A stretch of 64,000 nucleotides of DNA from Candidatus Oxydemutator sp. (GTDB taxonomy: Bacteria; Pseudomonadota; Gammaproteobacteria; Poriferisulfidales; Oxydemutatoraceae). The DNA lies in the NCBI GenBank assembly GCA_965203445.1, contig OZ241883.1:608001-672000 (forward strand). Direction: 5' to 3'. The position numbers were made by a program, and so were the translations under genes. Under the pieces are notes generated by a model. That model was not told where the DNA came from and searched no databases. It worked only from the letters and a program-made list of their open reading frames with translations. Shown one piece after another: positions 8,926 through 37,284 of this stretch. Numbering within the stretch: the first letter of the stretch is position 1; each line of letters opens with the position of its first letter.

Positions 8926-9587
8926 CGATCACGCACCTCGACCGTCACCACGTCCACGCCCGTCGCACCGCGCGCGTCCGCAACCGTCAACTCGAACACC
9001 AGCGTCTCCGCCACCACCACCCGCGGCACCGCGAACGTCGCCGTCTCCGACGTGGCGCCCGTCACCCCGACGACCGTGCCGCTGAGCTGACGCCACCGAT
9101 ACGTCAACTCCTCGCCTTCCGGATCATCCGCGACGCCGCGCAGCGTAACCACGTCGCCCTCGCCCGCGATCACGTCGGAACCCGCGTCCACCATCGGCGC
9201 GTCGTTCGCACCCGCGCGCACCGTGATCACCACCGTGTTCGTCGTATTGCCGACCAGCTGCCGTTCCACGGGCGACGACAAACCCCGCACGTCGGTTACC
9301 ACCAGCGCGAACTCAAGCGTCTCGTCGTCCACCAACTGCGTCGGCGCCAGGAACGTCGTGCTGCGCGCCGCGGCGTCGCGCAACGCCACCGTGGCGCCGC
9401 CGGTCTGACGCCAGCCGTACCTCAGCGGCTCGTTGTGCGAACTGCTGCTCGCGGCGCCGTCCAAAGTCACCACGGCGCCCTCGGACACGGTCTGATCAGG
9501 CCCGGCGTGCGCCGTCGGCGCGACCGCTTCCTGGGCGGACACGGTAGCGGCAACGGACAACCCTAATAGCAATAACAGACTACGCAC
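1..9587 (-). CDS. Giant secreted repeat protein A (partial, >3,190 aa): signal peptide, 2 PKD-like domains, at least 7 GLUG-like beta-helix/Calx-beta modules; putative adhesin; out of frame with the ATG at 9615 across the poly-G tract
   Basis: Absent from the ORF track, presumably because there is no stop inside the window. Manual translation from GTG 9587 gives VRSLLLLLGLSVAATVSAQEA, and the same frame reads WTPIGG...YTAVFE near 5860 and AVFEGNGHV at 3-30. Homologous to B and C throughout. An in-frame TGA lies at 9617-9615. Confidence 0.88.
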   Translation of the reverse strand, partial: MRSLLLLLGLSVAATVSAQEAVAPTAHAGPDQTVSEGAVVTLDGAASSSSHNEPLRYGWRQTGGATVALRDAAARSTTFLAPTQLVDDETLEFALVVTDVRGLSSPVERQLVGNTTNTVVITVRAGANDAPMVDAGSDVIAGEGDVVTLRGVADDPEGEELTYRWRQLSGTVVGVTGATSETATFAVPRVVVAETLVFELTVADARGATGVDVVTVEVRDRVDYDFDDDNLIEVATTSQLAAIGHDLGGAGLAGVSSANEAAYRAYRAAFPLYDEMETCPGTCAGYELSADLDLSSIADWTPLGGGDTPDSYTAVFEGNGHVISNLRMSSGGVYGTGLFGIVGADGRIRNVGLRNAQVAVGHIYVGALVGRNRGRVAASYVSGGRISGSFRVGGLIGGNSGRLVASYADVEVHASLGEAGGLVGEASVASVVSASYSVGETTGGSRVGGLIGRRVATAGGGQFGVTIIAAVESSYFDKERSLRSSCCGTNAHGLDDVVAKTSSDMILPITATGTIYAGWDKLNVDDVDQGGDDDYNDDAPWDFGSAFDYPVLVFGGATDTESARRTSQQQAQPQVSLAPTLIGSETVSEGGTASYVVSLSESLPAGVSASWNWAVGGEVSTDDFVGATSGDVVIASGAVSASFSVVVFDDDVPEFSEVLVVTLTGARLTGVPARVSLGVPLPVRTTIEVSDEIDYDFDDDTLIEVATTSQLAAIRYDLGGAGVTGVSDTNNVAYRKAFPFFDEASCPRACIGYELSADLDLSDIADWTPLGGGDTPDAYTAVFEGNGHVISNLRMSGGGVYGTGLFGIVGADGRIRNVGLRNAQVAVGHIYVGALVGRNRGKVAASYVSGGRISGSFRVGGLIGGNSGRLVASYADVEVHASIGEVGGLVGEASVASVVSASYSVGKTTGGSRVGGLIGRRVATAGGGQFGVTIIAAVESSYFDKERSLRSSCCGTNEFGLDDVVAKTSSDMILPITATGTIYAGWDKLNVDDVDQGSDGDLNDDAPWDFGTEFDYPVLVFGGATETEVARRTSQREAQRETQPEVSLTPTLAGSAGVSEGEAASYVVRFPGALPAGVTASWNWAVGGNQVIADDFDGRTSGSVVIASGASSASFSVRVRDDVITELSEVMVVALSDAMLTGAPARVSLGVPASVSTVISPSDGVGRDYDLDGDTLIEVATTSQLSAIRHDLGGAGLAGVSSEDRPAYRAAFPFFDETQTCPGASCTGYELSADLDLSSILDWTPIGGGGSDEIPNDGAFPQDYRSCVTRQSRGTRVCWDGAPADYYYTAVFEGNGHVISNLRMDRDGRWWHMGLFGAVNANGIIRNVGLRNARVNLDDSGSTYIGALVGRNEGKVAASYVSGGRISGVFGVGGLIGGHYGSLVASYADVEVQAGIGLVPPGETFSGRLNAGGLVGEVAAASVVSASYSIGATMGTAAVGGLIGGHEYHDDHLLLNYADVLQSSYFDGQRSGQSSCCGRNPPSPDNTSKTSAELFSPTAAALTIYEGWEQLNVDDVDQGDDGDLNDDAPWDFGTVFDYPVLVFAGATETKAMRRTSQQQAQGVILVPTLAGSATGPEGGIASYVVRFPVVLPAGASASWNWSVGGGEVDADDFVGTTAGSVVITSGTASASFSLRVRADGEIEPPEVMVVALSNARLAGAPAHVGLGVPLPVSTTIEFSDGIDYDEDDDTLIEVATTSQLAAIRYDLGGAGLAGVSSANKSAYFAAFPLFGAPQTCPSTCTGYELSADLDLSSVNPAPGAGWTPLGGGVETLQEEHYYTAVFEGNGRVVSNLRVISDGQRSHAGLFGAVSAVGVIRNVGLRNARVSVGAHSTYIGALVGRNEGKVAASYVSGGRISGVWAVGGLIGGHYGGLVASYADVEVHADGANAGGLVGEAGAVSVVSASYSVGATTGSGIVGGLIGNRRVGAVVGSSYFDAERSGQSDCCGSNVPSPDNSSKTSNQLRVPTTATGTIYAGWSRLNVDGVARADDGDLNDDAPWDFGSVFDYPVLVFGGATETMATRRTSQQQAQRVILAPTLAGSETVSEGGTASYVVSLPLVLPAGVSARWDWVVGGGEAGAADFVATTGSVAIASGAVSASFSVVVFDDDVPEFSEVLVVTLTGARLTGAPARVSLGVVAVRTTIEVSDRIDYDFDDDNLIEVATTSQLAAIRYDLGGAGIAGVSSANEAAYRAYRAAFPLYDETRTCPGTCAGYELSADLDLSSVNPAPGPGWTPLGGGVPRAVPGDAYTAVFEGNGHVIRNLRVARDGEWQIGLFGRVGAGGVIRNVGLHNARVEMGGDSLFIGALVGDNEGEVLASYVIGGRVSGNAGVGGLIGGHYAGRLVASYADVEVRADGANVGGLIGEAGGASVVSASYSVGRVTGIYPIGGLIGNRVAGAVVESSYFDRERSRQGGCCKPRASHQLRAPTTAVGTLYAGWDKLHVDDVDQGDDGDYNDDAPWDFGSVFDYPVLVFGGATETQAARRTSQREAQPQVILAATLAGSATVSEGEAASYVVSLPLALPAGVSARWDWVVGGGEADVADFVGTTGIVVIGSGASSASFSVTVFDDAVPEFSEILVVTLTGARLTGVPARVSLGVPVPVRTAIEVSDEIDYDFDDDTLIEVATTSQLAAIRHDLGGAGIAGVSSADEAAYLAAFPFFGDGQTCPSTCTGYELSTDLDLSDVPNWTPIGGGITRAPWNYVPPERRYQAVFEGNGHVISNVTIRSTNNATARFDSVGFFGAVGVTGRIRNVGLNNVHTDVASRSVGAGALAGYNAGKVAACYVVGDGRQVRGGWDLGGLVGRLDGGVVVASYADVPVHQRSRGQNVGGLIGVVVNGGIVSASYALSRLTRDGDGLQGFPSGGLVGGYGSGTLQASYFDAERSGQSRCCGGTNAPSSDDTSKTSSQLRVPTTAAGTLYEGWDRLNVDGVDQGGDDDYNDDAPWDFGSVFDYPVLVFGGATDTQVARRTSQQQAQPQVILAAALTGSVTVSEGGTARYVVRLPLVLPAGVRARWDWAVGGDVGADDFVGTTAGSVVIASGAVSASFSVTVLDDDVPEFSEVLVVTLTGARLTGVPARVSLGVPVPVRTTIGASDEIDYDFDDDTLIEVATTSQLAAIRHDLGGAGIAGVSSADEAAYLAAFPFFGDGQTCPSTCAGYELSADLDLSGLNWKPIGGEATTLAHRLRNPYGAVFEGNGHV
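9534..9587 (-). other. Sec-type signal peptide of gene A
   Basis: VRSLLLLLGLSVAATVSA|QEA: basic residue, hydrophobic core, V-S-A cleavage motif. Confidence 0.75.
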
Positions 9588-9613
9588 CCCCCCCCCCCCC
9601 CCCCCCCCCCCCC
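9587..9613 (-). repeat. Poly-G tract (G27) at the start of gene A; candidate phase-variation switch, OFF as assembled
   Basis: 27 consecutive C on the + strand. ATG 9615-9613 reads M-G9-A-TAG. Confidence 0.9.
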
Positions 9614-9815
9614 ATCACTGGACCGCCGAGCGTTCACGCTTTCGCGCACTTTCCCGTGACCGGCGGCAACGCGTTGGGAGCAGTCGCTTGCGACAAGATG
9701 GATGCAGGTGCGCCCGATACGGACGGCACGTGCCTAAGGCCAGGGAAATGAGATACCATGCTAATAGGGAACTATAGGCTATATGCCCTGATCCATGAAA
9801 ATGGGCGATTGGGGA

Positions 9816-9824
9816 ATTATATCA
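9816..9824 (-). promoter_or_regulatory. Putative extended -10 promoter (TGATATAAT) for gene A
   Basis: Perfect TGnTATAAT in an AT-rich island, identical in the second intergenic copy; no good -35 at 17 bp spacing. Confidence 0.55.
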
Positions 9825-9906
9825 AGCAGTTAGATCAATTCCATTCCGACTCCTGACAAATAAATACAAGTTATTGTTCCCCCTTGCTTTTATAATCATT
9901 CCGGGA

Positions 9907-9925
9907 AATGACCAAGCCGGCCATT
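9907..9925 (-). terminator. Possible weak terminator or stabilising hairpin after the gene B stop
   Basis: AATGGCC-GGCTT-GGTCATT stem directly after TAG with only a short U run; pairing retained via G-U in copy 2. Confidence 0.25.
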
Positions 9926-9927
9926 GC

Positions 9928-10720
9928 CTAATGCACCGAAAACGTCCTGCGCCGACCCTTGTTCTCTATCACGAAATACCGATCGGCGGACAACACCTCG
10001 CCGTCAAAGTCCACGTCCGCGTCCACCGCGTAATGGCCGGCCGCGGCCGCGGCGCGGTAGTCGGCCACGCCCAGCGACGTCAGGTTGTACACGCGTATCA
10101 ATACCTCGTCTCGCTCATCAATCACGCCGTTTCGATCCACGTCGCCCGCGACCATCGCATACCTGCCTGCCCCCACTGCGATCTGCCCGTCCCCGTGCGA
10201 CTGCCCGACGCGAAAGTCCACGCAGTAGTCCGCCTCGCAATCGGCGCCCGTGGTCGCGGCCGCCGGCACCGCCGACATCACCGGCAGATGGTTGCGGTGG
10301 TGGATCAGCACGTACAGGTGCTCGCCTTCGGGCGGCTTCAGCTCAAAGCGCACGCCGTCCAATGACAGCGCGTCCGCCACCGACGACGCCGCCTCGTTTA
10401 TCCCGGCGATGCGACCGTCGCTCAACAGCAGACCCGCGGCGCGACCGCCCGTCGACGGCCGCGACGACGCGGCCGCGGTCGTGCTCTGGCCGGTGCGCAA
10501 CTCCACCAGCACCCAGTCCACTATCGTCGAGGTTACCCCGGCCAGGCCAACCGCCGCGCCCGCGTGCGGCACCGTCGTCGTCACCGGGTGCCCCCACGGC
10601 AACGCGCCGTACGGCTGGCGCCTCGGCAACAAGTTTGCCAAGTCGCTCCTCATGCGGCGGGTTTCGGCAAGCAACGCCCCCTGCAAAACCACTCGCGCGT
10701 CCACCACTACGACCCTCTCG
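9928..10720 (-). other. Conserved C-terminal domain of B with dockerin/EF-hand-like Ca-binding loops
   Basis: VVLQG, QPY, VDWVLVELR, HHRNHL motifs, then GDVDRNGVIDERD and DADVDFDGEVLSAD. Confidence 0.65.
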
Positions 10721-13700
10721 CTGAAAATGCCGACGTCTGCGAACGACGGCGTTCCCAGCTCCGCTACATGGGTGACGCAATTCGGGCAGCCCGTCAGCCT
10801 CAAACGGAAGCGCTCGCGGCCCTCATTCTCCAACTGGTCGCTCGCCACGCGCACCGCTATCGTCGCCGTGCCCGTCTCATTCAACGTTACGCTCCCGGTG
10901 AACGGCAGCGAACCCACCGAGCGCGCGTCGGCGGCGCGCCCCGTTACGGTCACGGAAGCCAGGTCCTCGTGCGTCAAACCCCCGGAGGCGGCGGTAATCT
11001 CATATTCCACGACCACCGCCCGATCACCGCCGCCGCGCAGCGTGATCGTGAACGTCGCGGTAGTGTTTTCGCTCACCGTCGCGGACCTCGCCGCCACCGT
11101 TATCGGATCATTGACCGCTATCGTCGTGCGCGCGACGGTGCTCGGCACGCCCAAACGTACGTCAGCCGGCGCCCCCGTAAGCCTCGCGCTGCTCAACGTA
11201 ACCGCCAGCACCTCGGGCGGTTCGATAACGCCGTCGGCGCGCACCCTCAACACAAACGACGCGCTGGCGGCGCCGGCTGCGATGACCACGTTGCCCGCGG
11301 TGGTGCCGACAAAGTCGTCGGCGTCGACTTCGCCGCCCACCGCCCAGCTCCAACGCGCGCTCACCCCCGGCGGCAAGGCCTCCGGCAAGCGCACCACGTA
11401 ACTCGCGGTGCCACCTTCCACCACCACCGTGCTGCCGGCGAGCGTCGGCGCAAGAATTACCCGCGGCTGCGTCTGCTGCTGCGACGTGCGACGCGCCGCC
11501 TGCGTGTCGGTAGCGCCGCCGAACACCAACACCGGGTAATCGAACACGCCGCCGAAATCCCACGGCGCGTCGTCGTTGTAGTCGCCGTCGCGTCCCTGAT
11601 CCAGGCCGTCCACGTTCAATTTGTCCCAGCCCTCGTAGATGGTGCCCGCGGCCGTGGTCGGGACGCGCAACTGGTTCGACGTCTTCGAGGTGTTGTCCGG
11701 ACTCAGCACGTTCGATCCGCAGCAGTCACTTTGGACGCTGCGCTCTCGGTCAAAATAACTGGACTCCACCACGGCGCCGACCATCCTGTTCCCTATCAAG
11801 CCGCCGACTATGCCGCTCCCCGTCGGTTTGCCGACCGAGTAACTGGCGCTCACCACCGACGCGACACCGGCCTCGCCCACCAGACCGCCCGCGTTGGCTC
11901 CCTCTGCATGCACTTCCACGCCGGCGTAACTCGCTACCAACCCGCCGTAATTACCCCCTATCAAGCCACCCACCGCCCATACGCCGGATATGCGACCGCC
12001 ACTGACGTAACTCGCCACCACTTTGCCCTCGTTGCGGCCGACCAGCGCTCCTATATAAGTACTGTGATCACCCAGGGATATCCACGCGTCGCGCAAGCCC
12101 ACGTTGCGGACCGTGCCAACGGCGCCGACGGCGCCGAACAAGCCCGCGTGAGACAGCCGTCCACCCCTGACCACCCGCAGATTGCTGATGACGTGGCCGT
12201 TGCCTTCAAAAACCGCGGTGTAATAATTATCCAGAAGGCTGTCCCCTCCCCCGCCCAGCGGCGTCCAGCCCGCGCCCGGGGCCGGGTTCACGCTGGACAA
12301 ATCCAGGTCGGCCGATAACTCGTAGCCGGTGCACGTGCTCGGACAGGTCTGCTTCGCGTCGAAAAAGGGAAACGCCGCGAAATAAGCGAGTCTGTTCGCC
12401 TTGCCCACCACGCCCGCTATCCCGGCACCGCCCAGGTCATAGCGGATTGCCGCCAACTGCGACGTCGTCGCCACGTCTATCAAGGTGTCGTTGTCGTCGT
12501 CGTAGTCGGTGCCGTCGCTCAACTCGATCGTGGTCCTGATGGAAACCGGCCCGCCTATACTCACGTCCGCGGGCACCCCCGTGAGCCTCGCGTCCGTCAA
12601 CGTTACCACCAGAACCTCGGACAACTCGGGCTCGCCGTCAGCGCGCACTATCAACAAAAACGACGCACTGCTCGCGCCGGCTTCGATGACCACGCTGCCT
12701 GCGGTCGTGCCGACAAAGTCGTCGGCGTCGACTTCGCCGCCGCCCACCGCCCAGCTCCAACTCGCGCGCGCCCCCGCCGGCAAGGCCCCCGGCAAGCGCA
12801 CCACGTAACTCGCGGTGCCACCTTCCGACACCACCGTGCTCCCGGTGAGCGTCGGCGCAAAATCTACCTCCGGCTGCGCCTGCTGCTGCGACGTGCGACG
12901 CGCCGCCTGCGTCTCGGTAGCGCCGCCGAACACCAGCACCGGATAATCAAACGCGCCGCCGAAATCCCACGGCGCGTCGTCGTTGTAGTCGCCGTCGCGT
13001 CCCTGATCCAGGCCGTCCACGTTCAACCGGTCCCAACCCTCGTAGATGGTGCCCGCGGCCGCGGTCGGGGCGCGCAACTGAGCGGAAGTCCTGGGCGCGT
13101 CGTCCGTGGCCGGCACATGGCTGCCGCAACAATCGGACTGACCGCTGCGCCCTTCGTCAAAATAGCTTACCTGTATCGTACCGGAACTATGATCCCCCAC
13201 CAGACCGCCGGATGGAAATCCCGACGGGCTGCCGCCGTCCCCGGTCAGCCTCGAAACCGCGTAGCTGGCGCTGACTATGCCCCCCTTCGAAACGCCGCCT
13301 ATCAACCCCCCCACGCTTTCCCCTGGCGACCGCTGATTCACCGGCACGTCCGTATAACTGGCAATCACGACGCCCCCGTCCAATTTGCCCACCAGACCGC
13401 CCAAGGCCCAACCACCGTGCACTTGTCTGACGTCGCCCACCACGTAACACGCCGCCACTTTGCCCGCGTTGTACCCCGCCAGCGCGCCCGCCCCTATACT
13501 TCCGCCGGGCACGTCCGTATGCACGTTGTTCAAACCCACGTTGCGGATCCTGCCTGTGACGCCCACGGCACCAAAAAAGCCCACGCTATCGAAGCGGGCG
13601 GCTCCATTGTTTGCGCTGCGGATCGTTACATTGCTGATAACGTGGCCGTTGCCTTCAAAAACGGCCTGGTAACGCCGCTCCGGGGGAACGTAGTTCCAGG

Positions 13701-16700
13701 GAGCCTGTGTAATCCCCCCGCCTATCGGCTCCCAGTTCGGTATGCTGGACAGATCCAGGTCGGCCGACAACTCGTAGCCGGTGCACGTGGTAGGACAGGT
13801 CTGCAACTGACCGAAAACGGGAAACGCATCCAGATATTCGTCCCTGTTCGCATCGCCGCTCACGCCCGTCAGCCCGGCGCCGCCCAGGTCGTGGCGGATC
13901 GCCGCCAACTGCGACGTCGTCGCCACCTCTATCAAGGTGTCATTGTCGAGGTCGTAGTCCACCTCGTCGCTCGCCTCGATGATGGTCATCACGGAAACCG
14001 GCACGCCTAAACGCGCACGCGCGGGCGCCCCCGTCGGCATCGCGCTGCTCAACGTTACCACCATGACCTCGGAAAACTCAGGGATAGCGTCATCAAACAC
14101 CTCCACCGAAAACGACGCGCTGACGGCGCCGGAACCGATGACTACGACGCCGGTCGTGCCAACGAAGTCGGCGATACTAACCTCGTCGCCGCCCACGACC
14201 CAATCCCAACTCACGGTCGCCCCCGCCGGCAAGACCTCCGGCAAACTCACCACGTAACTCGCCGCCTCGCCTTCCGACACCGTCACGCTCCCGGTGAGCG
14301 TCGCCGCAAGAATTACTTGCGGCTGCGCCTGCTGCTGCGACGTACGGCGCATCGCCATAGTCTCGGTAGCGCCGCCGAACACCAGCACCGGATAATCAAA
14401 CACGGTGCCGAAATCCCACGGCGCGTCGTCGTTATAGTCGCCGTCGTCTCCCTGATCCACGTCGTCCACGTGCAACTTGTCCCAACCCGCGTAGAGGGTG
14501 CCCACCGCGGTGGTCGGGGCGCGTAACTGGTGTGACGCCCTCGATCCGCAGCAACCACTCTGGCGACTGCGCTCCCGGTCAAAATAACTGGACTCCACCA
14601 CGGCGCCGGCCACCCGGTTCCCTATCAAACCGCCAATCGGGTAAATCCCCGTCACTCTCCCGACCGAGTAGCTGGCGCTCACCACCGACGCGCCACCGGC
14701 TTCGCCTATCAGACCGCCCACGTTAGCTCCATCTGCACGCACTTCCACGTCGGCGTAACTCGCCACCAGCCTGCCGGCGTAATGACCCCCTATCAAACCG
14801 CCCACCCCCGCATTGCCGGATACGCGACCGCCAATGACGTAACTCGCCAACACTTCGCCCTCGTTGTCTCCCACCAGCGCACCTATAAACAAGCTATCAC
14901 CACCCATTTCCACCCGCGCGTTGTGCAAGCCCACGTTGCGGATCACGCCGCCGGCGCCCACCCTGCCGAACAAACCTATCTGCCACTCCCCGTCCCTGGC
15001 CACCCGCAAATTGCGGATGACGTGGCCGTTGCCTTCAAAAACGGCGGTGTAAGCATCCCCCGGCACGGCACGCGGAACCCCCCCGCCCAGCGGCGTCCAG
15101 CCTGGGCCCGGGGCCGGGTTCACACTGGACAGATCCAGGTCGGCCGACAACTCGTAGCCGGCGCACGTGCCCGGGCAGGTGCGCGTCTCGTCGTAACGGG
15201 GAAACGCCGCCAGATAAGCCCGATAAGCGGCCTCGTTGGCACTGCTCACGCCCGCCAGCCCGGCACCGCCCAGGTCGTGGCGGATCGCCGCCAACTGCGA
15301 CGTCGTCGCCACCTCTATCAAGTTGTCGTCGTCGGCGTCGTAGTCTATCTGGTCGCTCGCCTCGATGGCGGTCATCACGGGAACCGGCACACCCAAACTC
15401 ACGCGCGCGGGCACCCCCGTGAGCCTCGCGCCCGCCAACGAGATCACCAGAACCTCGGAAGGCTCGGGGGCGTCGTCATCGAGCACCGTCACCGAAAACG
15501 ACGCGCTGACGGCACCCGAGGCGATGGCCACGTTGCCGGTCGTGCCGACAAAGTCGTCGGCGTCGACGTCGCCGCCCACCGACCAATCCCAACTCGCGCG
15601 CACCCCCGCCGGCAAGACCAGCGGCAAGCGCACCACGTAACTCGCGGTGCCGCCTTCCGACGTGGTCTCGCTGCCGGTGAGCACCGGCGTAAGAATTACC
15701 CTCTGCGCCTCCTGCTGCGACGTGCGGCGCATCGCCCTGGTTTCGGTAGCGCCGCCGAACACCAGCACCGGGTAATCAAACACGCCGCCGAAATCCCACG
15801 GCGCGTCGTCGTTCAAATCGCCGTCGTCCGCCCGAGCCACGCCGTCCACGTTCAACCTGTCCCAACCCGCGTAGAGGGTGCCCGCGGCGGTGGTCGGGAC
15901 GTGCAACTGGTGCGACGGCCTCGAAGTGTCGTCCGGACTCAGCGGATGCAATCCACAGCAACGACTCAAGCCGCTGCGCTGGCCGTCAAAATAACTTGAT
16001 TCCATCACGGCGCGGATGTGCCTGCTCCCTGTCAAACCGCCAACCGCGTTGCGCCCCGTCAGGGTGCCGACGAAGTAACTGGCGCTCGTCACCGACCCGT
16101 AACCGGCTTGGCCTACCAGACCGCCCACGTCTACATCGGCATGCACGTCCACCGCGGCGTAACTCGCCACCAGCCTGCCGCCGCGATGATCCCCTATCAA
16201 GCCGCCCACGCTGTCCACCGAGGGTCCGCCTATGCGACCGCCAATGACGTAACTCGCCGCCACTTCGCCCAGATTGAACCCCACCAGCGCACCTATACCT
16301 CGGCCATCATTACTCAGACTCACCCGCGCGTTGCGCAAGCCCACGTTGCGGATCCTGCCGTCGGCACCCACGGCGCCGAACAAACCCATGCTAAGCGACT
16401 GCCTGTCCCTGACCATCCGCAGATTGCTGATGACGTGGCCGTTGCCCTCGAAAACAGCGGTGTAGCGCTCCTGTCCTAGAAGATCCCTGATACGGCTGAC
16501 CTCGCCGCCTATCGGCGTCCAGCCTGGGCCCGGGGCCGGGTTCACGCTGGACAGATCCAGGTCGGCCGACAACTCGTAGCCGGTGCACGTGCTCGGACAG
16601 GTCTGCGGCGCGCCGAAAAGGGGAAACGCCGCAAAATAAGCGGATTTGTTAGTCTTGCTCACGCCCGCTATCCCGGCACCGCCCAGGTCGTAGCGGATCG

Positions 16701-19700
16701 CCGCCAACTGCGACGTCGTCGCCACCTCTATCAGGGTGTCGTCGTCCTCGTCGTAGTCTATCCCGTCGCTGAACTCGATCGTGGTGCTGACGGGAAGCGG
16801 CACGCCCAAACCCACGCCCTGCGGCGCCCCCGCGAGCCTCGCGTTGCTCAACGCAACCACCATGACCTCGGGCATCTCGATCTCGCCGTCGGCGCGCACC
16901 CTCAACACAAACGACGCGCTGGCGGCGCCGGCTGCGATGACCACGCTGCCTACGGTGGTGCCGACAAAGTCGTCGGCGTCGACTTCGCCGCCGCCCACCG
17001 CCCAGCTCCAACGCGCGCTCGCCCCCGCCGGCAAGGCCGCCGGAAAGCGCACCACGTAACTCGCGATCCCACCTTCCGGCCCCGTCGCACTGCCGGCGAG
17101 CGTCGGCGTAAGAATTACCTCCGGCCGCGCCTGCTGCTGCGACGTGCGACGCATCGCCTCGGTCTCGGTAGCGCCGCCGAACACCAGCACCGGGTAATCA
17201 AACACGCTGCCGAAATCCCACGGTGCGTCGTCGTTCAAGTCGCCGTCGCGTCCCTGATCCACGTCGTCCACGTTCAACTTGTCCCAACCCGCGTAGATGG
17301 TGTCCGTCACCGTGGTGGGAAAAAGCAACTCGGTCGACGTCTTCGATGTGTTGTCCGGACTCGGCGAATTCCTTCCGCAGCATCTGCTCTGGCCGCTGCG
17401 CTCTTTGTCAAAATAACTGGACTCCACCACGGAACCGGTAACCCTGCTCCCTATCAAACCATTGGCCGATGCCCCCGTCGGTCTGCCGATGGAGTAACTG
17501 GCTGTCACCGCCCCCTCGGAGTGGTCTGAACCCACGAGGCCGCCCGCGTTCGCCCCACCTGCATGCACTTCCACGTCGGCGTAACTCGCCACCACCTCAC
17601 CGCCATTGATTCCTATCAAGCCGCCCACCGAGATTCCGCCGGATATGCGACCGCCACTGACGTAACTCGCCGCCACTTTGCCCTGGTTGGTTCCCACCAG
17701 CGCACCGGCACCCTCGCTATCACGACCCAGGCTCATCCGCGCGTTACGCAAGCCCACGTTGCGGATCCTGCCGCCGAGGCCCACGTTGCCGAACAAACCC
17801 ACGTGAAACCATCGTTCATGTACGTTCCTCACCACCCGCAGATTGCTGATGACGTGGCCGTTGCCTTCAAAAACCGCGGTGTAAACATCCCCCGGAAGGT
17901 CTTCCAGCCTGACGCCCCCGCCTAGCGGCGTCCAGTCCGGGATGCCGGACAAGTCCAGGTCGGCCGACAACTCGTAGCCGGTGCACGTGCCCGGACAGGT
18001 CTCCATCTCGTTGTAATGGGGAAACGCCGCCCGATAAGCCCGATAAGCGGCCTCGTTCGCACTGCTCACGCCCGCCAACCCGTCACCGCCCAGGTCGTGG
18101 CGGATCGCCGCCAACTGCGACGTCGTCGCCACCTCTATCAAGGTGTCATTGTCAAGGTCGTAGTCCATCTGGTCGCTCGCCTCGATCGTGGTCATCACGG
18201 AAACCGGCACGCCTAAACGCGCACGCGCGGGCGCCCCCGTCGGCATCGCGCTGCTCAACGTTACCACCATGACCTCGGACAACTCGGTCACGGCGTCTGC
18301 GCGCACTGCCACCGAAAACGACGCGCTGACGGCACCGGACGGGATGACCACGCTGCCTGTCGTGCCGACAAAGTCGGCGATGCTGACCTCGTCGCCGCCC
18401 ACGACCCAATCCCAACGCACGCTCGCCCCCGTCGGCAAGACCTCCGGCAAACTCACCACGTAACTCGCCGCCTCGCCTTCCGACACCGTCACGCTCCCGG
18501 TGAGCGTCGCCGCAAGAATTACCTGCGGCTGCGCCTGCTGCTGCGACGTGCGGCGCATCGCCCTAGTCTCGGTAGCGCCGCCGAACACCAGCACCGGATA
18601 ATCAAACACGGTGCCGAAATCCCACGGCGCGTCGTCGTTCAGATCGCCGCCGCCCGCCCGAGCCACGTCGTCCACGTTCAACTGGTCCCAACCCGCGTAG
18701 AGGGTGCCCGCGGCCGTGGTCGGGACGCGCAACTGGCTCGACGTCTTCGAGGTGTCGTCCGGACTCGGCGGATTCACTCCGCAGCAACGACTCAGGCCGC
18801 TGCGCTCGCCGTCAAAATAACTTGATTCCACCACGACGTCGCGATGAGCGATCCCTATCAAACCGCCGACCGTGCCACCCGTCAGTCTGCCGACCGAGTA
18901 ACTGGCGCTCACCACCGACGCGGCGCCGACTTCGCCTATCAGACCGCCCGCGCCACTTGCATTTGTATGCACTTCCACGTCGGCGTAACTCGCCACCAGA
19001 CTGCCGAAATGACCCCCTATCAAACCGCCCACCTCAAATACGCCGGATATGCGACCGCCGATGACGTAACTCGCCGCCACTTTGCCCAGGTTGATTCCCA
19101 CCAGCGCACCGGCAAATCGGCCGCCACTACCCAGGCTCACCTGCGCGTTGCGCAAGCCCACGTTGCGGATCCTGCCGTCGCGACCCACGGTGCCGAACAA
19201 ACCCATGCTGAACCAATGCCCGTCCCTGACCATCCGCAGATTGCTGATGACGTGGCCGTTGCCCTCAAAAACAGCGGTGTAGATCCCCCCCAGAAGCTCC
19301 CCGAAACTGCTGACCCCGCCGCCCAGCGGCGTCCAGCCCGGGCCCGGGGCCGGGTTCACGCTGGACAGATCCAGGTCGGCCGACAACTCGTAGCCGGTGC
19401 ACGTGCCCGGACAGGTCTCCATCTCGTCGTACAGGGGAAACGCCGCCAGATAAGCCCGATAAGCGGCCTCGTTGGCACTGCTCACGCCCGCCAGCCCGGC
19501 GCCGCCCAGGTCGTAGCGGATCGCCGACAACTGCGACGTCGTCGCCACCTCTATCAGGGTGTCGTCGTCGAGGTCGTAGTCTATCTCGCCTCTCGCCTCG
19601 ATGGTGGTCCTGACGGAAACCGGCACGCCTAAACTCACGCGCGCGGGCGCCCCCGTGAGCATCGCGTCGCTCAACGCGACCACCATGACCTCGGACAACT

Positions 19701-22700
19701 CGGTAATGACGTCATCGCGCACCCTCACCGAAAACGACGCGCTGCTCGCGCCGGATGCGATGACCACGCTGCCGCTGGTCCTGCCGTCAAAGTCGTCGGC
19801 GTTGACCTGGTTGCCGCCCACCGCCCAATTCCAACTCGCAGTCACCCCCGCCGGCAAGGCCCCCGGAAAGCGCACCACGTAACTCGCGGTGCCACCTTCC
19901 GACACCGTCTCGCTGCCGGCGAACGTCGGCGTAAGACTTATCTCCCGCTGCGTCTCCCGCTGCGACGTGCGACGCGCCACCTCCGTGTCGGTAGCACCGC
20001 CGAACACCAGCACCGGGTAATCAAACTTGGTGCCGAAATCCCACGGAGCGTCGTCGTTCAAATCGCCGTCGCTGCCCTGATCCACGTCGTCCACGTTCAA
20101 CTTGTCCCAACCGGCGTAGATGGTGCCCGTCGCCGTGAGCGGGAACAACAAGTCGCTCGACGTCTTCGCAACAACGTCGTCCAGACCATGCGCGTTCGTT
20201 CCGCAGCAACTGCTCCGGAGGCTGCGCTCTTTGTCAAAATAACTCGACTCCACCGCGGCGCCGGCAACCCTGTTCCCTATCAAACCGCCGACCAGCCCTC
20301 CCCCCGTCGGTATCCCGACGGAGTAGCTGGCGCTGACCACCGACGCGGCGCCGGCTTCGCCCACCAGACCGCCCGCGTTGCTTGCCTCTGCATGCACCTC
20401 CACGTCGGCGTAACTCGCCACCAAACTGCCGTAATGACCCCCTATCAAACCGCCCACCCCGGATGCGCCGGATATGCGACCGCCACTCACGTAACTCGCC
20501 GCCACTTTGCCCTCGTTGCGGCCCACCAGCGCACCGGTATAGGTGCTGCTGCGACCCAAATCCACCTGCGCGTTGCGCAAGCCCACGTTGCGGATTCTGC
20601 CGTCGGCGCCGACGATGCCGAACAAACCCGTGCCATACACCCCGCCGCCGCTCATCCGCAGGTTGCTGATGACGTGGCCGTTGCCTTCGAAAACAGCGGT
20701 GTAAGCATCCGGCGTACCGCCCCCGCCTAGCGGCGTCCAGTCCGCTACGTCGGACAGATCCAGGTCGGCCGATAACTCGTAGCCGGTGCACGCACCCGGA
20801 CAGCTCGCCTCGTCGAAAAAGGGAAACGCCCGCCGATAAGCGACGTTGTTCGCGTCGCCCACGCCCGTCACCCCGACACCGCCCAGGTCGTGGCGGATCG
20901 CCGCCAACTGCGACGTCGTCGCCACCTCTATCAAGGTGTCGCCGTCGACGTCGTAGTCCTTTTCGACTCCGTCGCTGGGATCGATCACGGTCCTCACCGG
21001 AGCGGGCACGCCTAAGCGCACGCCACGCGCGGGCACCCCCGCGCCCGTGAGCCTTGCATTGCTCAACGCAACCACCATGGTCTCGAACGACTCGGTATCG
21101 GCGTCGTCGCGCACTACCACCGAAAACGACGCGCTGACGGCGCCAGACCTGATGACCACGGTGCCGGTCGTGTTGACAAAGTCGGCGGCGTCGGCTTCGC
21201 CGCCGCCCACGGCCCAATCCCAAGTCGCGCGCACCCCCGCCGGCAAGACCATCGGCAAGCGCACCACGTAACTCGCGGTGCCGCCTTCCGACACGGTCTC
21301 GCTTCCGATGAGCGTCGGTGCAAGACTTACCTGCGGCTGCGCCTCCTGCTGCGACCTGCTACGCGCCTGCCTCGTCTCGGTAGCACCGCCGAACACCAGC
21401 ACCGGGTAATCAAACGCGCTGCCGAAATCCCACGGACTGTCGTCGTTGTAGTCGACGTCGCCCCCCTGATCCACGTCGTCCACGTTCAACTTGTCCCAAC
21501 CCTCGTAGATGGTGCCCGCGGCCGTGGTCGGTGTGCGCAACTGGTACGACGTCCTCGGAGCGACGTTGTTCAGATCACCCGGGTTCCTTCCGCAGCAACT
21601 GGCCCGAAGGCTGCGCTGCACGTCAAAATAACTCGACTCCACCACGGAACCGGCAACCCGGTTCCCTATCAAACCGCCGACGAAGGCAGTCCCCGACTCC
21701 GCTTCCACCAACCCGACGGAGTAGCTGGCGCTCACCACCGACGCGCCATCGGCGTCGCCCGTCAAACCGCCCACGCCGCTCTCTATTCCATGCACCCTCA
21801 CGGCCGCGTAACTCGCCACCAACCGCCCGCCGTAATGACTCCCTACCAAACCGCCCACCGAAGCCACGCCGGATACGCTACCGCCAATGACGTAGCTCGC
21901 CACCACTTCGCCCCGGTCCCCGTTGTCTCCTACCAGCGCGCCTACAAAATAGCCACCGTGCACCTGAACGTTACGCAAGCCCACGTTGCGGATCACGCCA
22001 CTGCCGTTCACGGCCCCGAACAAACCTATCTGAGTCGGAACGGCAGCAGGATTACCAGGCGGAACGTCATGATACATCGTCAAGTTTTTGATGACGTGGC
22101 CGTTGCCTTCAAAAACAGCGGTGTAAGCATCCCCCGGAAAGTCGCGCAGCGGGACGTTCCCGCCTATAGGCTCCCAGTTCGGTATGTCGGACAGATCCAG
22201 GTCGGCCGACAACTCGTAGCCAATGCACGTGCCCGGACAAGTCTCCATCTCGTCGTACAGGGGAAACGCCGCCCGATAAGCCCGATAAGCTGCCTCATTC
22301 GCACTGCTCACGCCCGCCAGCCCGGCGCCGCCCAGGTCGTGGCCGATCGCCGCCAACTGCGACGTCGTCGCCACCTCTATCAAGTTGTCGTCGTCAAAGT
22401 CGTAGTCCACGCGATCACGCACCTTGACCGTCACCGTGTCCACGCCCGTCGCGCCGCGCGCGTCCGCAACCGTCAACTCGAACACCAGCGTCTCCGCCAC
22501 CGCCGCCCGCGGCACCGCGAACGTCGCCGTCTCCGACGTGGCGCCCGTCACCTCGACGACCGTGCCGCTGAGCTGACGCCACCGATACGTCAACTCCTCG
22601 CCTTCCGGATCATCCGCGACGCCGCGCAGCGCAACCACGTCGCCTTCGCGCACGATCACGTCGGAACCCGCGTCCACCATCGGCGCGTCGTTCGCGCCCG

Positions 22701-25700
22701 CGCGCACCGTGATCACCACCGTGTTCGTTGTCTGACCACTCAACTGCCGTTCCACGGGCGACGACAAACCCCGCGTGTCCGTCGCCACCAGCACGAACGT
22801 CAGGGTCTCGCTGCTCACCAACTGCTCCGGCGCCACAAACGTCGTGCTGCGCGCTGCGGCGTCGTGCAACGACACCTGACTGCCGCTGATCTGACGCCAG
22901 CCATACACCAGCATCTCGTTCTCCGGATCCCTGCCTACGCCGGCAAGCGTTACCACGTCGCCCTCGTCCACCATCTGGTCGGCGCCCGCGTCCGCTACCG
23001 GCGCGGCGTTCGCGCCCGCGCGCACCGTGATCACCACCGTGTTCGTCGTCTGACCGCTCAACTGCCGTTCTCTCGGCGACGACAGGCCGCGCGTGTCCGT
23101 CGCCACCAGCACGAACGTCAGGGTCTCGTCGCTCACCAACTGCTCCGGCGCCACAAACGTCGTGCTGCGCGCTGCGGCGTCGTGCAACGACACCTGACTG
23201 CCGCTGATCTGACGCCAGCCATACACCAGCATCTCGTTCTCCGGATCGCTACCGTCGCCGTCCAGCGTTACCATCTCGCCCTCGTACACCACCTGATCAT
23301 CGCCCGCGTCCGCCGTCGGCGCGTCGTTCGGCCCCGCTCGCACCGTGATCACCACCGTGTTCGTCGTCTGACCGCTCAACTGCCGTTCTCTCGGCGACGA
23401 CAAACCCCGCGTGTCCGTCGCCACCAGCACGAACGTCAGGGTCTCGTCGCTTACCAACTGCTCCGGCGCCACAAACGTCGTGCTGCGCGCTGCGGCGTCG
23501 CGCAACGACACCTGACTCCCGCTGATCTGACGCCAGCCATACTCCAGCACCTCCTCCTCCGGATCGCTGCCGGTGCCGGCCAGCGTTACCACCTCGCCCT
23601 CGTCCACCATCTGATCGGCGCCCGCGTCCGCCACCGGCGCGTCGTTCGCGCCCGGGCGCACCGTGATCACCACCGTGTTCGTCGTCTGACCGCTCAACTG
23701 CCGCTCTCTCGGCGACGACAAGCCGCGCGTGTCCGTCGCCACCAGCACGAACGTCAGGGTCTCGCTGCTCGCCAACTGCACCGGCGCCAGGAACGTCGTG
23801 CTGCGCGCTGCGGCGTCGTGCAACGACACCTGACTTCCGCTGATCTGACGCCAGCCATACACCAGCATCTCGTCCTCCGGATCGCTGCCTACGCCGGCCA
23901 GCGTTACCAACTGGCCCTCGTCCACCACCTGATCATCGCCCGCGTCCGCCGTCGGCGCGTCGTTCGGCCCCGGCAACACCTCGACCGACACCTCGGCAGA
24001 CGAACTCGCATCGCGCCTGTCCGTCACCGTCAGACGGAACACCAGCGTCGCCGTCTCCGCCAACTGCATCGGCGCCCTGAAACTCGCCCTATTCGTCGTC
24101 GGTTCGCCCAGCCCCACGTCAATACCGCCAATCTGTTCCCATCTATACGACAGACGGCCACCCTCGGTGTCCGTCGCACTGCCGCGCAACGTAACCTCGG
24201 CGCCTTCGCCTACCACTTGATCCGAACCGGCATCCACCACCGGCGGCGTGTTGACCCCCAGCTCCACATAGACCACCAAATCATCGGTCGTCGCGGCACC
24301 GCGCTCGTCCGTAACACGCAACGCAAACGCTATCTCCGTCGCCGAACTCAAACCCGTCGGTATCACAAAGCTCGTAATCCTCGACGACGCATCGCTCAAC
24401 GCAACTCCCAGCACCTCCGCACCGCTGGTCTGACTCCACCGATACCTCAACTCCTCGCTCTCAGGATCATAGGCGCTGCCGCGCAGCACCACCACGTCGC
24501 CCTCGCCCGCAAGCAGATTATCGCCCGCGTCCACCACCGGCGCGTCGTTCGCTCCCGCGCGCACTTCGACCACTACCGTGTCCGTGTCCGTCGCCCCGCG
24601 CGCGTCCGCCACCGTCAACTCGAACACCAGCGTCGCCGTCTCCACCAACTGCATCGGCGCCGTGAACGTCACGGTGGTCGTCGTGGTGGTCGTGGCGCCT
24701 ATCGTCGCTCCCGTCAACGTCACTCGACCGCCGCCGATCTGACGCCAGCCATACGTCAGATCCTCTCTCTCTGGATCACTGCTGCCATCGCCGTCCAGCG
24801 TTACCAGTCCGCCCTCGTCCACCACCTGATCATCACCCGCGTCCGCCACCGGCGCGTCGTTCGCGCCCGCGCGCACCGTCACCACCACCGTCGCCGTCGT
24901 CGAAACCGCACCACGCGTGTCCGTTACACGCAGCGCAAACTCCAACTCCTCATCCGACACCAACTGCATCGGCGCCGTGAAACTCGCGGTTACCGACATC
25001 GCGTTCGTCAGCGTAACGCGCACGCCCCGGGTCTGACTCCAGACATACACCAGCGCTTCTTTCTCCGGATCGTTACTGGCGTCGCCGTCCAGTATCACCA
25101 CCGCGCCCTCGGACACCACCTGGGCAAAACCGGCGTCCGCCGTCGGCGCGTCGTTCGCGCCCGGGCGCACCGTGATCACCACCGTGTTCGTCGTCTGATC
25201 GCTCAACTGCCGCTCCGCAGGCGACGACAGTCCGCGCGTGTCCGTCGCCACCAACACGAACGTCAGGGTCTCGCTGCTCACCAGCTGCACCGGCGCCACA
25301 AACGTCGTGCTGCGCGCCCCGGCGTCGTACAACGACACCTGACTGCCGCTGATCTGACGCCAGCCATACACCAACATCTCGTCCTCCGGATCGCTGCCCG
25401 CGCCGTCCAGCGTCACCACGTCGCCCTCGTCCACCACCTGATCATCGCCCGCGTCCGCCGTCGGTGCGTCGTTCTCGCCCGGAACCACCTCGACCACCAC
25501 CGTGGCCGTGCCCGTCGCGTCGCGCGCGTCCGTTACCGTCAACTCGAACACCAGCGTCGCCGTCTCCGCCAACTGCATCGGCGCCATGAACGTCGCGGTG
25601 GTCCTGGAACCTATCGTCGCTCCCGTCAGCGTCACTCGACCGCCGCCGATCTGACGCCAGCCATAGCTCAACTCCTCTCTCTCCGGATCCCTGCTACCGT

Positions 25701-28700
25701 CGCCGTCCAGCGTTACCATCTCGCCCTCGGACACCACCTGATCATCGCCCGCGTCCGCTATCGGCGCGTCGTTCTCGCCCGCACGCACCGTGATCACCAC
25801 CGTGTTCGTTGTCCGATCGCTCAACTGACGTTCCACGGGCGACGACAGACCCCGCGTGTCCGTCGCCACCAGCACGAACGTCAGGGTCTCGCTGCTCGCC
25901 AACTGCACCGGCGCCAGGAACGTCGTGCTGCGCGCTGCGGCGTCGTGCAACGACACCTGACTGCCGCTGATCTGACGCCAGCCATACACCAGCATCTCGT
26001 CCTCCGGATCGCTGCCATCGCCGGCCAGCGTCACCAACTGGCCCTCGTCCACCACCTGATCGGCGCCCGCATCCGCTACCGGCGCGTCGTTCGGCCCCGG
26101 CAACACCTCGACCGACACCTCGGCAGACGAACTCGCATCGCGCCCGTCCGTCACCGTCAGACGGAACACCAGCGTCGCCGTCTCCGCCAACTGCATCGGC
26201 GCCGTGAACGTCGCCACCGACGACGTCGGATTCCCCAAAACCACGTCGCCACCGCCGATCTGTTCCCACCTGTACGACAATACGCCGCCCTCGGTGTCCG
26301 TCGCACTGCCGCGCAGCGTGACCTCCGCCCCTTCATCCACCACTTGATCGGAACCGGCATCCACCATCGGCGGCGTGTTCGCTCCCAACTCCACCCTGAC
26401 CACCACTCGCGCGGTCGCCGCCAGACCGCGCTCGTCCGTCACCCTCAACGCAAATCCCAACACCACCGCATCCAACGGCGACGTGAACGTCGCCACCGAC
26501 GACGTCGCACCCGACAACATCACCGTCGGCTGACCGCTGGTCTGACTCCACTGATACCTCAACGTCTCGTTCTCCGGATCAAACGCCACCCCGCGCAGCG
26601 TAACCTCCTCACCCTCGCCCACCACCTGATCCTGCCCCGCGCTCACCACCGGCGCGTCGTTCGGCCCCGGCAACACCTCGACCGACACCTCGGCCGACGA
26701 ACTCGCATCGCGCCGATCCGTCACCGTCAGACGGAACACCAGCGTCGCCGTCTCCGCCAACTGCATCGGCGCCGTGAACGTCGCCACCGCCACCATCGGA
26801 TTCCCCAAAACCACGTCGCCACCGCCGATCTGTTCCCATCTGTACGACAATACGCCGCCCTCGTTGTCCGTCGCACTGCCGCGCAGCGTGACCTCCGCCC
26901 CTTCGCCGACCACTTGATCGGAACCGGCATCCACCACCGGCGGCGTGTTCGTCCCCAACTCCACCCGAACCACCACCAGCGCGGTCGTCGCCAGACCACG
27001 CTCGTCCGTCGCCCTCAACGCAAATATCAGCACCGCCGCCTCCGCCAGACCCGACGGCGACGTGAACGTCGCCACCGACGACGTCGCACCCGACAACACC
27101 ACCGTCGGCTGACCGCTGGTCTGGCTCCATTGATACCTCAACGTCTCGTTCTCCAGATCAAACGCCACCCCGCGCAGCACCACCGCCTCGCTCGAACCCA
27201 CTACCTGGTTCCGCCCCGCACTCACCACCGGCGCGTCGTTCGGCCCCGGCAACACCTCGACTGACACCTCGGCCGACGAACTCGCATTGCGCCCGTCCGT
27301 CACCGTCAGACGGAACACCAGCGTCGCCGTCTCCGCCAACTGCATCGGCGCCGTGAACGTCGCGGTTACCGACTGCGCGTTCGTCAGCGTGACTCCCCTG
27401 CCGCTGACCTGACGCCAGTCATACCTCAACTCCTCTCTCTCCAGATCGCTGCTGCCAGTGCCGTCCAGCGTTACCAACTCGCCCTCGTCCACCACCTGAT
27501 CGGCGCCCGCGTCCGCTACCGGCGCGTCGTTCTCGCCCGCGCGCACCGTGACCGACACCGTGTCCGTGCCCACCGCGTCGCGCGCGTCCGTTACCGTCAA
27601 CTCGAACACCAGCGTCGCCGTCTCCGCCAACTGCATCGGCGCCAGGAACGTCGCGGTGGTCCTGGAACCTATCATCGCTCCCGTCAGCGTCACTCGACCG
27701 CCGCCGATCTGACGCCAGCCATAGCTCAACTCCTCTCTCTCCGGATCCCTGCTACCGTCGCCGTCCAGCGTTACCATCTCGCCCTCGTACACCACCTGAT
27801 CATCGCCCGCGTCCGCCGTCGGCGCGTCGTTCTCGCCCGCGCGCACCGTGATCACCACCGTGTTCGTCGTCTGACCGCTCAACTGCCGTTCCACGGGCGA
27901 CGACAAACCCCGCGTGTCCGTCGCCACCAGCACGAACGTCAGGGTCTCGTCGCTCACCAACTGCTCCGGCGCCACAAACGTCGTGCTGCGCGCTGCGGCG
28001 TCGTGCAACGACACCTGACTCCCGCTGATCTGACGCCAGCCATACACCAGCATCTCGTCCTCCGGATCGCTGCCAACCCCGTCCAGCGTTACCACGTCGC
28101 CCTCGTCCACCATCCGGTCGGCGCCCGCGTCCGCGACCGGCGCGTCGTTCGCGCCCGGGCGCACCGTGATCACCACCGTGTTCGTCGTCTGACCGCTCAA
28201 CTGCCGCTCTCTCGGCGACGACAAGCCGCGCGTGTCCGTCGCCACCAGCACGAACGTCAGGGTCTCGCTGCTCGCCAACTGCACCGGCGCCAGGAACGTC
28301 GTGCTGCGCGCTGCGGCGTCGTGCAACGACACCTGACTGCCGCTGATCTGACGCCAGCCATACACCAGCATCTCGTCCTCCGGATCGCTGCCATCGCCGG
28401 CCAGCGTTACCAACTGGCCCTCGTCCACCACCTGATCGGCGCCCGCGTCCGCCGTCGGCGCGTCGTTCTCGCCCGGCAACACCTCGACCGACACCTCGGC
28501 AGACGAACTCGCATTGCGCCCGTCCGTCACCGTCAGACGGAACACCAGCGTCGCCGTCTCCGCCAACTGCATCGGCGCCGTGAACGTCGCCACCGACGAC
28601 GTCGGATTGCCCAAACCCACGTCGCCACCACCGATCTGTTCCCACCTGTACGACAATACGCCGCCCTCGGTGTCCGTCGCACTGCCGCGCAACGTGACCT

Positions 28701-36972: not shown

Positions 36973-37172
36973 CACAAACCGCCGAGCGTTCACGCTTTCG
37001 CGCACTTTCTCGTGACCGGCGGCAACGCGTCGGGAGCAGTCGCTTGCGACAAGATAGATGCAGGTGCGCCCGATACGGACGGCACGCGCCCTAAGGCCAG
37101 GGAAAGGAAATACCATGCTAGTAGGGAACTGTAGGCTATACGCCCTGATCCATGAGAATGGGCGATTGAGGA

Positions 37173-37282: not shown

Positions 37283-37284
37283 GC

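Follow-up and report, generated by a model that had tools for sequence, protein, structure and literature searches.

Giant tandem proteins of a Candidatus Oxydemutator genome carry arrays of predicted GLUG-type beta-helices with variable loops on a constant framework

Three minus-strand open reading frames (ORFs), A, B and C, take up the 64-kb stretch of Candidatus Oxydemutator sp. DNA that we analysed (contig OZ241883.1, positions 608,001 to 672,000; hereafter, the window). They are tandem paralogues built largely from a repeated module of about 470 amino acid residues (aa), which consists of a beta-helix domain of about 330 aa and a Calx-beta-like spacer of about 135 aa. We found that the beta-helix domains vary at fixed loop slots on a constant framework, that the loops no longer show net purifying selection, and that the modules are mosaics of one another. 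We are somewhat inclined to regard the locus as a multi-specific adhesin array diversified by homologous recombination, whose loops are predicted from the sequences to bind ligands. Loop variation itself is expected for the fold; the interest of the locus lies in the size of the repertoire, the cassette-like shuffling, the homopolymer tracts at the gene starts, and its testability.

The window holds 33 modules, the number given by an earlier sequence-only reading of this DNA, and 32 of them are complete; the partial module, A7, was excluded from all statistics. Pairwise identity between copies of the ~330-aa domain is 55-99% (median 70%). The region to which that reading referred, 11110-22415 on the minus strand, contains exactly eight modules, B1-B8, of 459-484 aa each, which span 11119-22407 in the C-terminal half of the protein of gene B. 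Their features are as follows.

21382..22407, minus strand: beta-helix B1, with its own loop type
19993..20958, minus strand: beta-helix B2, a chimera of A2-like and C17-like parts
18574..19581, minus strand: beta-helix B3, the folded reference
17170..18165, minus strand: beta-helix B4, solenoid 96% DNA-identical to that of C1
15748..16758, minus strand: beta-helix B5, with its own loop type
14368..15345, minus strand: beta-helix B6, solenoid 99% DNA-identical to that of A5, spacer closest to that of C2 instead
12919..13959, minus strand: beta-helix B7, with a loop type common to A6 and C4
11512..12507, minus strand: beta-helix B8, with a loop type common to C5, C6, A4 and C9
11119..21381, interleaved, minus strand: eight putative Calx-beta-like spacers of ~135 aa, one behind each beta-helix

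The AlphaFold2 model of B3, made with an alignment of 53 rows, had a predicted local distance difference test (pLDDT) score of 90.1 and a predicted template modelling (pTM) score of 0.91, with short strands repeating over residues ~100-257. Its best structural match was 3N6Z (BACOVA_03286; Z 28.1, root-mean-square deviation 2.8, 258 residues aligned, model range 1-335; Foldseek E 1.4e-5), with the M26 IgA1 protease beta-helix next (Z 21.8 and 18.4). As modelled, the repeated domain is a GLUG-motif/M26-type right-handed beta-helix, in agreement with the beta-helix fold named in the sequence-only reading. The Pfam GLUG profile (PF07581) reached 16.4 bits (E 0.012) in B2 against a cut-off of 20.5, and gave no match in B1 or B7, these being the three modules scanned; by hand count, PF07581 is present on about 75 of 120 listed homologues. 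Sequence searches of the PDB found no real relative (0 matches, plus one chance match at E 0.45), and the strong matches in a viral fold search were GLUG-like uncharacterised proteins only. The family is very large: 9,315 representatives were counted at E<=1e-30 and 53,249 cluster representatives at E<=0.001. Giant arrays of many copies occur commonly among its members. According to the accessible part of one report, the function of the GLUG motif is unknown and adhesion has been suggested (PMC9723798). In the literature that we searched, which included few subscription papers and no supplements, the term 'GLUG motif' occurs in two papers, no paper joins GLUG with a beta-helix, and nothing was found on GLUG arrays or homopolymer switching in sponge symbionts. 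Weak GLUG-domain matches also occur in P0157, P0160 and P0162, proteins with flagellin Pfam domains, which places the same domain inside a surface filament protein.

The variation is concentrated at fixed slots, as the sequence-only reading had proposed. The seven loops quoted there after the W.P.GG box can all be located, in B1-B5, B7 and B8, and sequence and length both vary at the slots that it named after SNL, NA.V, DVEV and SYSVG (6-39 aa after W.P.GG, 7-15 after SNL, 5-16 after NA.V, 5-18 after DVEV and 3-16 after SYSVG). The list was correct as far as it went, and it lacked the GGRISG slot and most of a second stack of loops. The slots after SNL, NA.V, DVEV and SYSVG, together with the GGRISG slot, correspond to the same turn in successive coils, before the GGL[VI]G strand; we assigned this turn as T3. 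The second variable stack, which we assigned as T1, is formed by the turns behind each G[AG]L[VIF]G strand: the W.P.GG slot and five others. In the reference domain the slots are located as follows.

19282-19317, minus strand: B3 slot T1-0
19207-19230, minus strand: B3 slot T3-1
19177-19191, minus strand: B3 slot T1-1
19114-19137, minus strand: B3 slot T3-2
19087-19095, minus strand: B3 slot T1-2
19033-19041, minus strand: B3 slot T3-3
19003-19014, minus strand: B3 slot T1-3
18952-18969, minus strand: B3 slot T3-4
18916-18933, minus strand: B3 slot T1-4
18871-18888, minus strand: B3 slot T3-5
18835-18852, minus strand: B3 slot T1-5

Among 336 positions, 49 exceed 2 bits of entropy, and 37 of these fall inside the 54 slot positions. 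High-entropy sites are clustered along the chain rather than scattered (67 runs against 84.7 expected, p=0.0005). Mean entropy is 2.21 bits in T3 and 2.20 bits in T1, 1.60 and 1.02 bits at the adjoining outward strand positions, 0.53 bits in the core, and 0.33 bits on the T2/PB3 face. Entropy in the slots is 1.5 bits higher than at other outward-facing solenoid positions (none of 100,000 permutations gave as large a difference), in a comparison that was not blind, since the position classes, derived from DSSP of the B3 model and a coil register of ~27 residues, were assigned after the per-column entropy had been seen. Modules B1-B8 alone show the same pattern (1.85 vs 0.30-0.47 bits). Thus the exposed back of the solenoid is conserved and the variation is limited to one side, as had been supposed; the description as one face rests on the in-register stacking of the slots into the T1 and T3 columns. 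In other right-handed beta-helices T3, PB1 and T1 make the ligand groove, and length variation of T1 and T3 has been linked to specificity, according to the available portion of PMC9410043. On the model, the two stacks of slots likely flank one glycine-rich sheet, which is the groove side in those proteins. A further T3-type turn carries a dimorphic insertion of 5-6 aa, NPAPG, just ahead of W.P.GG (B3 residues 76-82, near 19336-19356), which sorts independently of the other loops.

The framework also includes four Cys residues (CPxxC and CCG), which we found in all 32 complete modules, as had been claimed for them. Minor exceptions concern the boxes (CV for CP in C10, CCK in A5), and extra Cys residues occur in A3, A6, B7 and C4. 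The first loop of module A3 (5727-5843) is 39 aa long with an internal Cys pair, and is probably a disulfide-closed hairpin.

Codon models gave an omega (the ratio of nonsynonymous to synonymous rates) of 0.23-0.33 for the framework and 1.06-1.32 for gap-free slots, never significantly above 1 at the class level (p 0.08-0.74); these gap-free tests left out T1-0, the first loop, and masked modules of non-modal loop length. Ten non-overlapping close pairs gave 0.88 in slots vs 0.36 in the framework, and the caps had an omega of 0.47. A first class-level fit with an omega of 1.64 for T1 (p=0.0008) was rejected as an effect of indel alignment, because the signal vanished once the length-variable loops were masked. 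Site models with constant synonymous rate (dS) gave twice the log-likelihood difference (2dL) at 59-89, with 16 of the 17 top sites in slots; when dS was allowed to vary, the signal fell to about 14-15, and the Calx-like spacer, used as a control, gave 17-42. The dS of the slots is itself higher than that of the framework (1.41 vs 0.91, p=0.0002), which fits conversion homogenising the framework; with dS forced equal, the slot omega becomes 1.68. We conclude that net purifying selection is absent from the loops, and that diversifying selection on them is neither shown nor excluded. Since the slots include near-fixed Gly and Asn sites and still have an omega near 1, faster sites may exist among the rest.

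The loops fall into 14 types among the 32 complete modules at 60% slot identity, in 30 distinct combinations, and several lines of evidence indicate that they have been shuffled. For each of the four segments (N-cap, solenoid, tail and spacer) the trees of the remaining segments are rejected, with gaps of 194-1,258 log units, in a comparison that by construction favours the segment's own tree. Incompatible site pairs amount to 56%, against 29-43% in 20 simulations on a single tree. Solenoids that are 96-99% identical in DNA sit in differing flanks and genes (A5/B6, A6/C4, B4/C1 and A1/A2). Some modules are chimeras: B2 is A2-like to about residue 140 (96-100% in DNA) and then C17-like (92-97%), with the switch in the middle of the solenoid; C4 is A6-like and then B7-like from the tail; and A1 is B1-like and then A2-like. 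Exact repeats are mostly 170-400 nt long, a length consistent with conversion tracts, and the longest, common to C12 and C16, is 1,135 nt. We infer that ordinary homologous recombination is enough to explain the shuffling. No dedicated diversification machinery or silent donor cassettes occur in the 64 kb, which are filled by the three ORFs, and the window contains no recombinase or reverse transcriptase gene. A target of a diversity-generating retroelement (DGR) was considered and excluded because the changes are not adenine-specific (adenine is involved in 134 of 282 differences, 48%, in 10 close pairs); the loops also differ in length.

The constant framework with variable loops is a family-wide property. 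The entropy of 199 distant homologous domains correlates with that of the window (Spearman 0.76 in the solenoid), and 67 other multi-domain arrays have a median slot identity of 17% vs 62% for the framework. P0195 has the same helix-plus-spacer period with its own loop set (slots 20% vs framework 68%). In P0002, the closest relative, loops of the A1/A2 and A3 types are retained and follow one another as they do here, with slot identities of 71% and 65%, against medians of 27-33% to all window modules. As two loop types are kept in another genome, the repertoire is of germline paralogues rather than diversified de novo as in antibodies or the variable lymphocyte receptors (VLRs) of lampreys, and from these sequences the 14 types appear to be long-lived paralogous types, not fresh somatic variants. 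P0002 also holds a longer version (~40 aa) of the Cys-closed first loop of A3.

Under the adhesin reading, the three genes would be tandem paralogues for giant secreted proteins of the cell surface, each protein a chain of GLUG-type beta-helices with Calx-beta-like spacers. In each beta-helix some 11 loops in two turn columns would wall a glycine-floored face, while the back of the solenoid, the caps, the four Cys residues and Asp-rich motifs, which probably bind Ca, stay fixed. Different loop sets would confer different affinities for glycans or proteins of a host or matrix, and a single molecule would thus be multi-specific. The germline repertoire would grow by duplication; solenoid cassettes, whole or partial, would pass between modules and genes by homologous recombination or gene conversion guided by the conserved framework; and slippage-prone poly-G at each gene start would vary expression between cells.

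Several results weigh against this reading. The pooled omega of the slots, 1.18 (bootstrap 0.88-1.65; framework 0.27), is not significantly above 1, and simulations of recombination alone reach the observed site statistics in 12 of 68 and 6 of 68 cases, although this null was built on noisy local trees of 20 codons and may be conservative; the diversifying selection that the sequence-only reading had expected is therefore not demonstrated. The Calx-like spacer gives a site signal as strong as that of the slots and has a high omega, 0.60, so that much of the pattern could come from relaxed selection. The loops are not enriched in aromatic residues: Phe, Trp and Tyr make up 6.9% of distinct slot alleles vs 8.7% of the whole domain, so that the suggested richness in aromatic and charged residues holds for some loops and fails overall. 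Charged residues (Asp, Glu, Lys and Arg) account for 20% of slot alleles vs 18% of the domain, Arg alone for 8.7% vs 5.4%, and Gly, Ser and Ala together for 39% of slot alleles. Modules C11-C18 carry almost the same loops, which adds avidity or length and not diversity. If the C-terminus of gene B is an anchor, the variable modules would lie close to the cell with the PKD repeats farther out, whereas a stalk-and-tip adhesin has the opposite arrangement. In genes A and B an in-frame GTG follows the homopolymer tract and opens a normal-looking signal peptide like those of relatives, and the tract lengths may be assembly errors.

A broader form of the adhesin reading is tentative, and we would not expect it to hold in full: GLUG arrays would be a combinatorial recognition system, expanded in sponge-associated lineages, with paratope-like solenoids, loops mixed by gene conversion and arrays switched by the tracts, through which symbiont cells would sample many host or microbial ligands. 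Were this so, a very large uncharacterised family would gain a function, and a natural binder scaffold would be at hand. The 14 loop types on a framework about 87% identical, together with chimeras such as B2, offer a natural experiment on the ligands of GLUG domains and the surface that contacts them. Should their specificities prove different, the arrays would be a candidate route for partner recognition by uncultured host-associated bacteria and a possible scaffold for engineering.

An unlikely alternative, which nonetheless accounts for much of the data, is drift that is tolerated because the protein serves as a structural rod or surface mesh. The modules would then be Ca-stiffened spacers, the T1 and T3 loops would be no more than the places at which any beta-helix takes up change, and recombination would be a by-product of tandem repeats. 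The slot omega of about 1, the Gly/Ser/Ala-rich loops, the occurrence of the pattern throughout the family and the fast evolution of the whole array, caps and spacer included, all accord with it. Against it stand the retention of loop types in the same order in another genome, the Cys-closed insertion of ~40 aa among them, and the exchange of entire solenoids as cassettes between differing flanks; moreover, slots that contain near-fixed Gly and Asn sites and yet have an omega near 1 would imply faster sites. Evasion seems to us improbable: here the loops would be targeted by phage receptor-binding proteins or host innate receptors, and variation and switching would serve escape. The poly-G tracts, the paralogue cluster and the mosaicism match the chlamydial pmpG group and similar systems, as far as the accessible text of PMC6740158 describes them, and the slot omega under equal dS and the position of the top constant-dS sites point the same way. 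However, only one side varies and the exposed back is conserved, old loop types persist across genomes, positive selection is not demonstrated given the recombination null, and eight near-identical copies, C11-C18, coexist.

Very little speaks for an array of enzymes, in which each beta-helix would be a polysaccharide lyase or hydrolase whose substrate groove varies, or would belong to an M26-like protease. The fold class is common to lyases and tailspikes and the domain resembles the M26 beta-helix, but lyase and tailspike matches (Z about 9-11.6) lie far below the GLUG match. The parts of ORFs A, B and C in the window contain no HExxH motif, and the groove strands have no invariant acid/base or other polar residue, their invariant columns being Gly, Leu, Ala and Phe (with the face assigned by register); thus the domain is not catalytic in any evident way. 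Invariant Asp, Glu and Arg residues sit in the caps, the tail or the T2 side. On these grounds we rejected a lyase or hydrolase, and also an M26 IgA1-type protease, which would have HExxH and the M26 MD and CTD catalytic domains; the ZmpA model scored 12 bits against a cut-off of 3000, over the helix only. It is scarcely credible that the mosaics or tract lengths come from mis-assembled strain mixtures, for although the DNA is highly repetitive, long G runs are error-prone and apparent frameshifts occur in P0121, P0122 and P0124, open reading continues without a break over 27 kb and 26.7 kb, no exact repeat is longer than 1,135 nt, and the independent proteins P0002 and P0195 have the same architecture.

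Antibodies, lamprey VLRs and DGR targets share a constant framework with variable loops on one side. The analogy with antibodies and VLRs drawn in the sequence-only reading survives for the clustering of loops on a constant framework, is not demonstrated for positive selection, and fails for de novo diversification: unlike those systems, the window shows no somatic assembly, donor cassettes, recombinase or reverse transcriptase, and has old loop types across genomes. The pattern of framework and loops alone is ordinary for beta-helices and is no evidence of an immune-like system. Giant adhesins such as LapA, SiiE and the RTX adhesins are, like the proteins here, very long secreted chains of Ig-like and Ca-binding domains, and the repeats of LapA and SiiE are mostly spacers, whereas many repeats here carry distinct loop sets; the fold and secretion also differ. 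PfEMP1 proteins have conserved scaffolds with variable loops shuffled by recombination, with a fold and secretion different from those of the locus here.

GLUG proteins (PF07581; 3N6Z; NTD2 of the M26 IgA1 proteases, 7UVK and 7JGJ) have the same fold and the GGL[VI]G coil motif. In contrast to them, the proteins here have 8-18 or more copies per protein alternating with Calx-like spacers, three tandem genes, added Cys pairs and Asp-rich motifs, and no protease domains. The beta-helix of M26 IgA1 proteases touches the IgA1 Fab through surface residues that are conserved between two enzymes, according to the portions available of PMC7695701 and PMC9637739. Lyases and tailspikes resemble the domain in their conserved core and variable T1/T3 loops around the PB1 groove (accessible part of PMC9410043), and differ in that the domain has no conserved catalytic residues, a shorter solenoid of about 6 coils, and a place in a tandem, putatively multi-specific array. 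By analogy, the closest in working logic appear to be the chlamydial Pmp clusters. The pmpG group comprises adhesins that are paralogous and probably beta-helical; their genes undergo poly-G/C slippage and duplication, and their expression varies, according to the excerpts available of PMC6740158 and PMC2997323. Pmp proteins, however, are autotransporters with one passenger each and GGA(I/L/V)/FxxN repeats, whereas here the diversity is arrayed in one chain. A Pfam scan found no autotransporter barrel in the C-terminus of B, and the homologues of this C-terminus have no autotransporter Pfam domain.

The three genes and the main parts of gene B other than its modules are as follows.

37285..63999, minus strand: gene C, 18 modules, 5' end beyond the window, C-terminus the same as that of B
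9928..36972, minus strand: gene B, a secreted multidomain protein of ~9,010 aa
3..9587, minus strand: gene A, 2 PKD repeats followed by at least 7 modules, 3' end beyond the window
36889..36942, minus strand: putative Sec-type signal peptide of B from the GTG, by inspection (MR, a hydrophobic stretch, VSA/Q)
22408..36888, minus strand: PKD array of B, 47-48 K319L-like (Ig-like) repeats
9931..10707, minus strand: conserved C-terminal domain of B, ~260 aa with a dockerin/EF-hand-like end, also at the end of gene C
9077..11600, minus strand: duplicated junction (3' part of B, spacer, 5' part of A), matching the C-to-B junction at 36462-38969 with 87% identity in 2,543 columns
36946..36970, minus strand: G25 homopolymer where gene B begins, read in frame as ATG plus G24, or lying immediately ahead of the GTG if translation starts there
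9587..9613, minus strand: G27 homopolymer where gene A begins; reading from ATG 9615 is out of frame, and the final G of the run opens the GTG at 9587

ORF B was originally called at 9928-37116 (9,062 aa); the gene starts at ATG 36972 or, likelier, at GTG 36942. It encodes in order a signal peptide, 47-48 PKD repeats, eight beta-helix and Calx-like modules, an extra Calx-like domain and a dockerin-like C-terminal domain. The signal peptide of A is almost identical to that of B.

The G25 and G27 tracts are the only homopolymer runs longer than 7 nt in the 64 kb, and a long homopolymer at such a 5' position is, as a sequence feature, a signature of putative phase variation. Because the in-frame GTG and signal peptide follow, the tracts are more probably untranslated, and would tune expression rather than shift the frame; both are known modes of tract switching, as described in the available parts of PMC3786947, PMC3639595 and PMC12721329. 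Scans of both intergenic spacers for sigma-70 promoters and terminators found nothing. Among 76 fetched loci, four have C/G runs of at least 10 nt that are not at assembly gaps, namely poly-C at L006:9847 (13 nt), L008:18955 (10 nt), L009:5750 (10 nt) and L027:13515 (26 nt). All four lie just before the signal-peptide-like sequence of a large ORF, and two of the four have GLUG matches. The four loci come from Dehalococcoidia and Ca. Poriferisocius records, and in L027 there is no ATG between the tract and the signal-peptide-like stretch. These sequences suggest that control of giant surface genes by simple sequence repeats may be widespread in the two lineages. At the protein level, 9 of 329 fetched proteins have a run of at least six Gly or six Pro in the first 80 residues, against 0.4 expected; four of the nine resemble lipoprotein linkers, and five have the run before or at the start of the signal peptide.

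The K319L-like PKD Pfam match has an E of 8e-87 in the first 700 aa of B. The number of PKD repeats is very unequal in the paralogues, with 47-48 in B (22408-36888) vs 2 in A (8922-9587), and both arrays run into an almost identical first-module cap. Length variation of the PKD array likely arose through unequal crossing-over. The C-terminal domain of B matched Dockerin_1 at E 6e-4, below the cut-off, and only weak dockerin-like matches were found in the last 396 aa; a structure prediction from the single sequence gave no confident fold (pLDDT 29). The same domain is found on otherwise unrelated secreted proteins (S8 peptidases and Calx/FN3 proteins), and its distribution makes it a candidate lineage-specific sorting or anchoring signal. 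The Calx-beta-like label of the spacers is indirect: PF03160 is annotated on close homologues (e.g. P0009, P0034, P0054 and P0059), and there is a weak match to a Na/Ca-exchanger profile (E 0.09). PF03160 itself gave no match in the three window modules scanned.

C11-C18 (38485-49620) are a recent expansion of eight near-identical modules with 90-99% identity. The spacers of C8 and C10 (52453-52881 and 49621-50049) form a distinct subtype with ~60% DNA identity to the others and accompany two divergent modules. Near-identical modules also occur in another record (P0121, P0122 and P0124), where the apparent frameshifts lie near G-rich GGR.SG codons.

The best GTDB matches, at about 30-40% identity, are records of SAR202/Dehalococcoidia, Ca. 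Poriferisocius, Ca. Aldehydirespiratoraceae and Ca. Oxydemutatoraceae, lineages that we take to be sponge-associated; that this genome has a symbiotic lifestyle is a guess. In one further fetched locus (L011:1787-1838), poly-C flanks an assembly gap between two segments that presumably belong to a type I restriction specificity (hsdS)-like gene, possibly a phase-variable hsdS.

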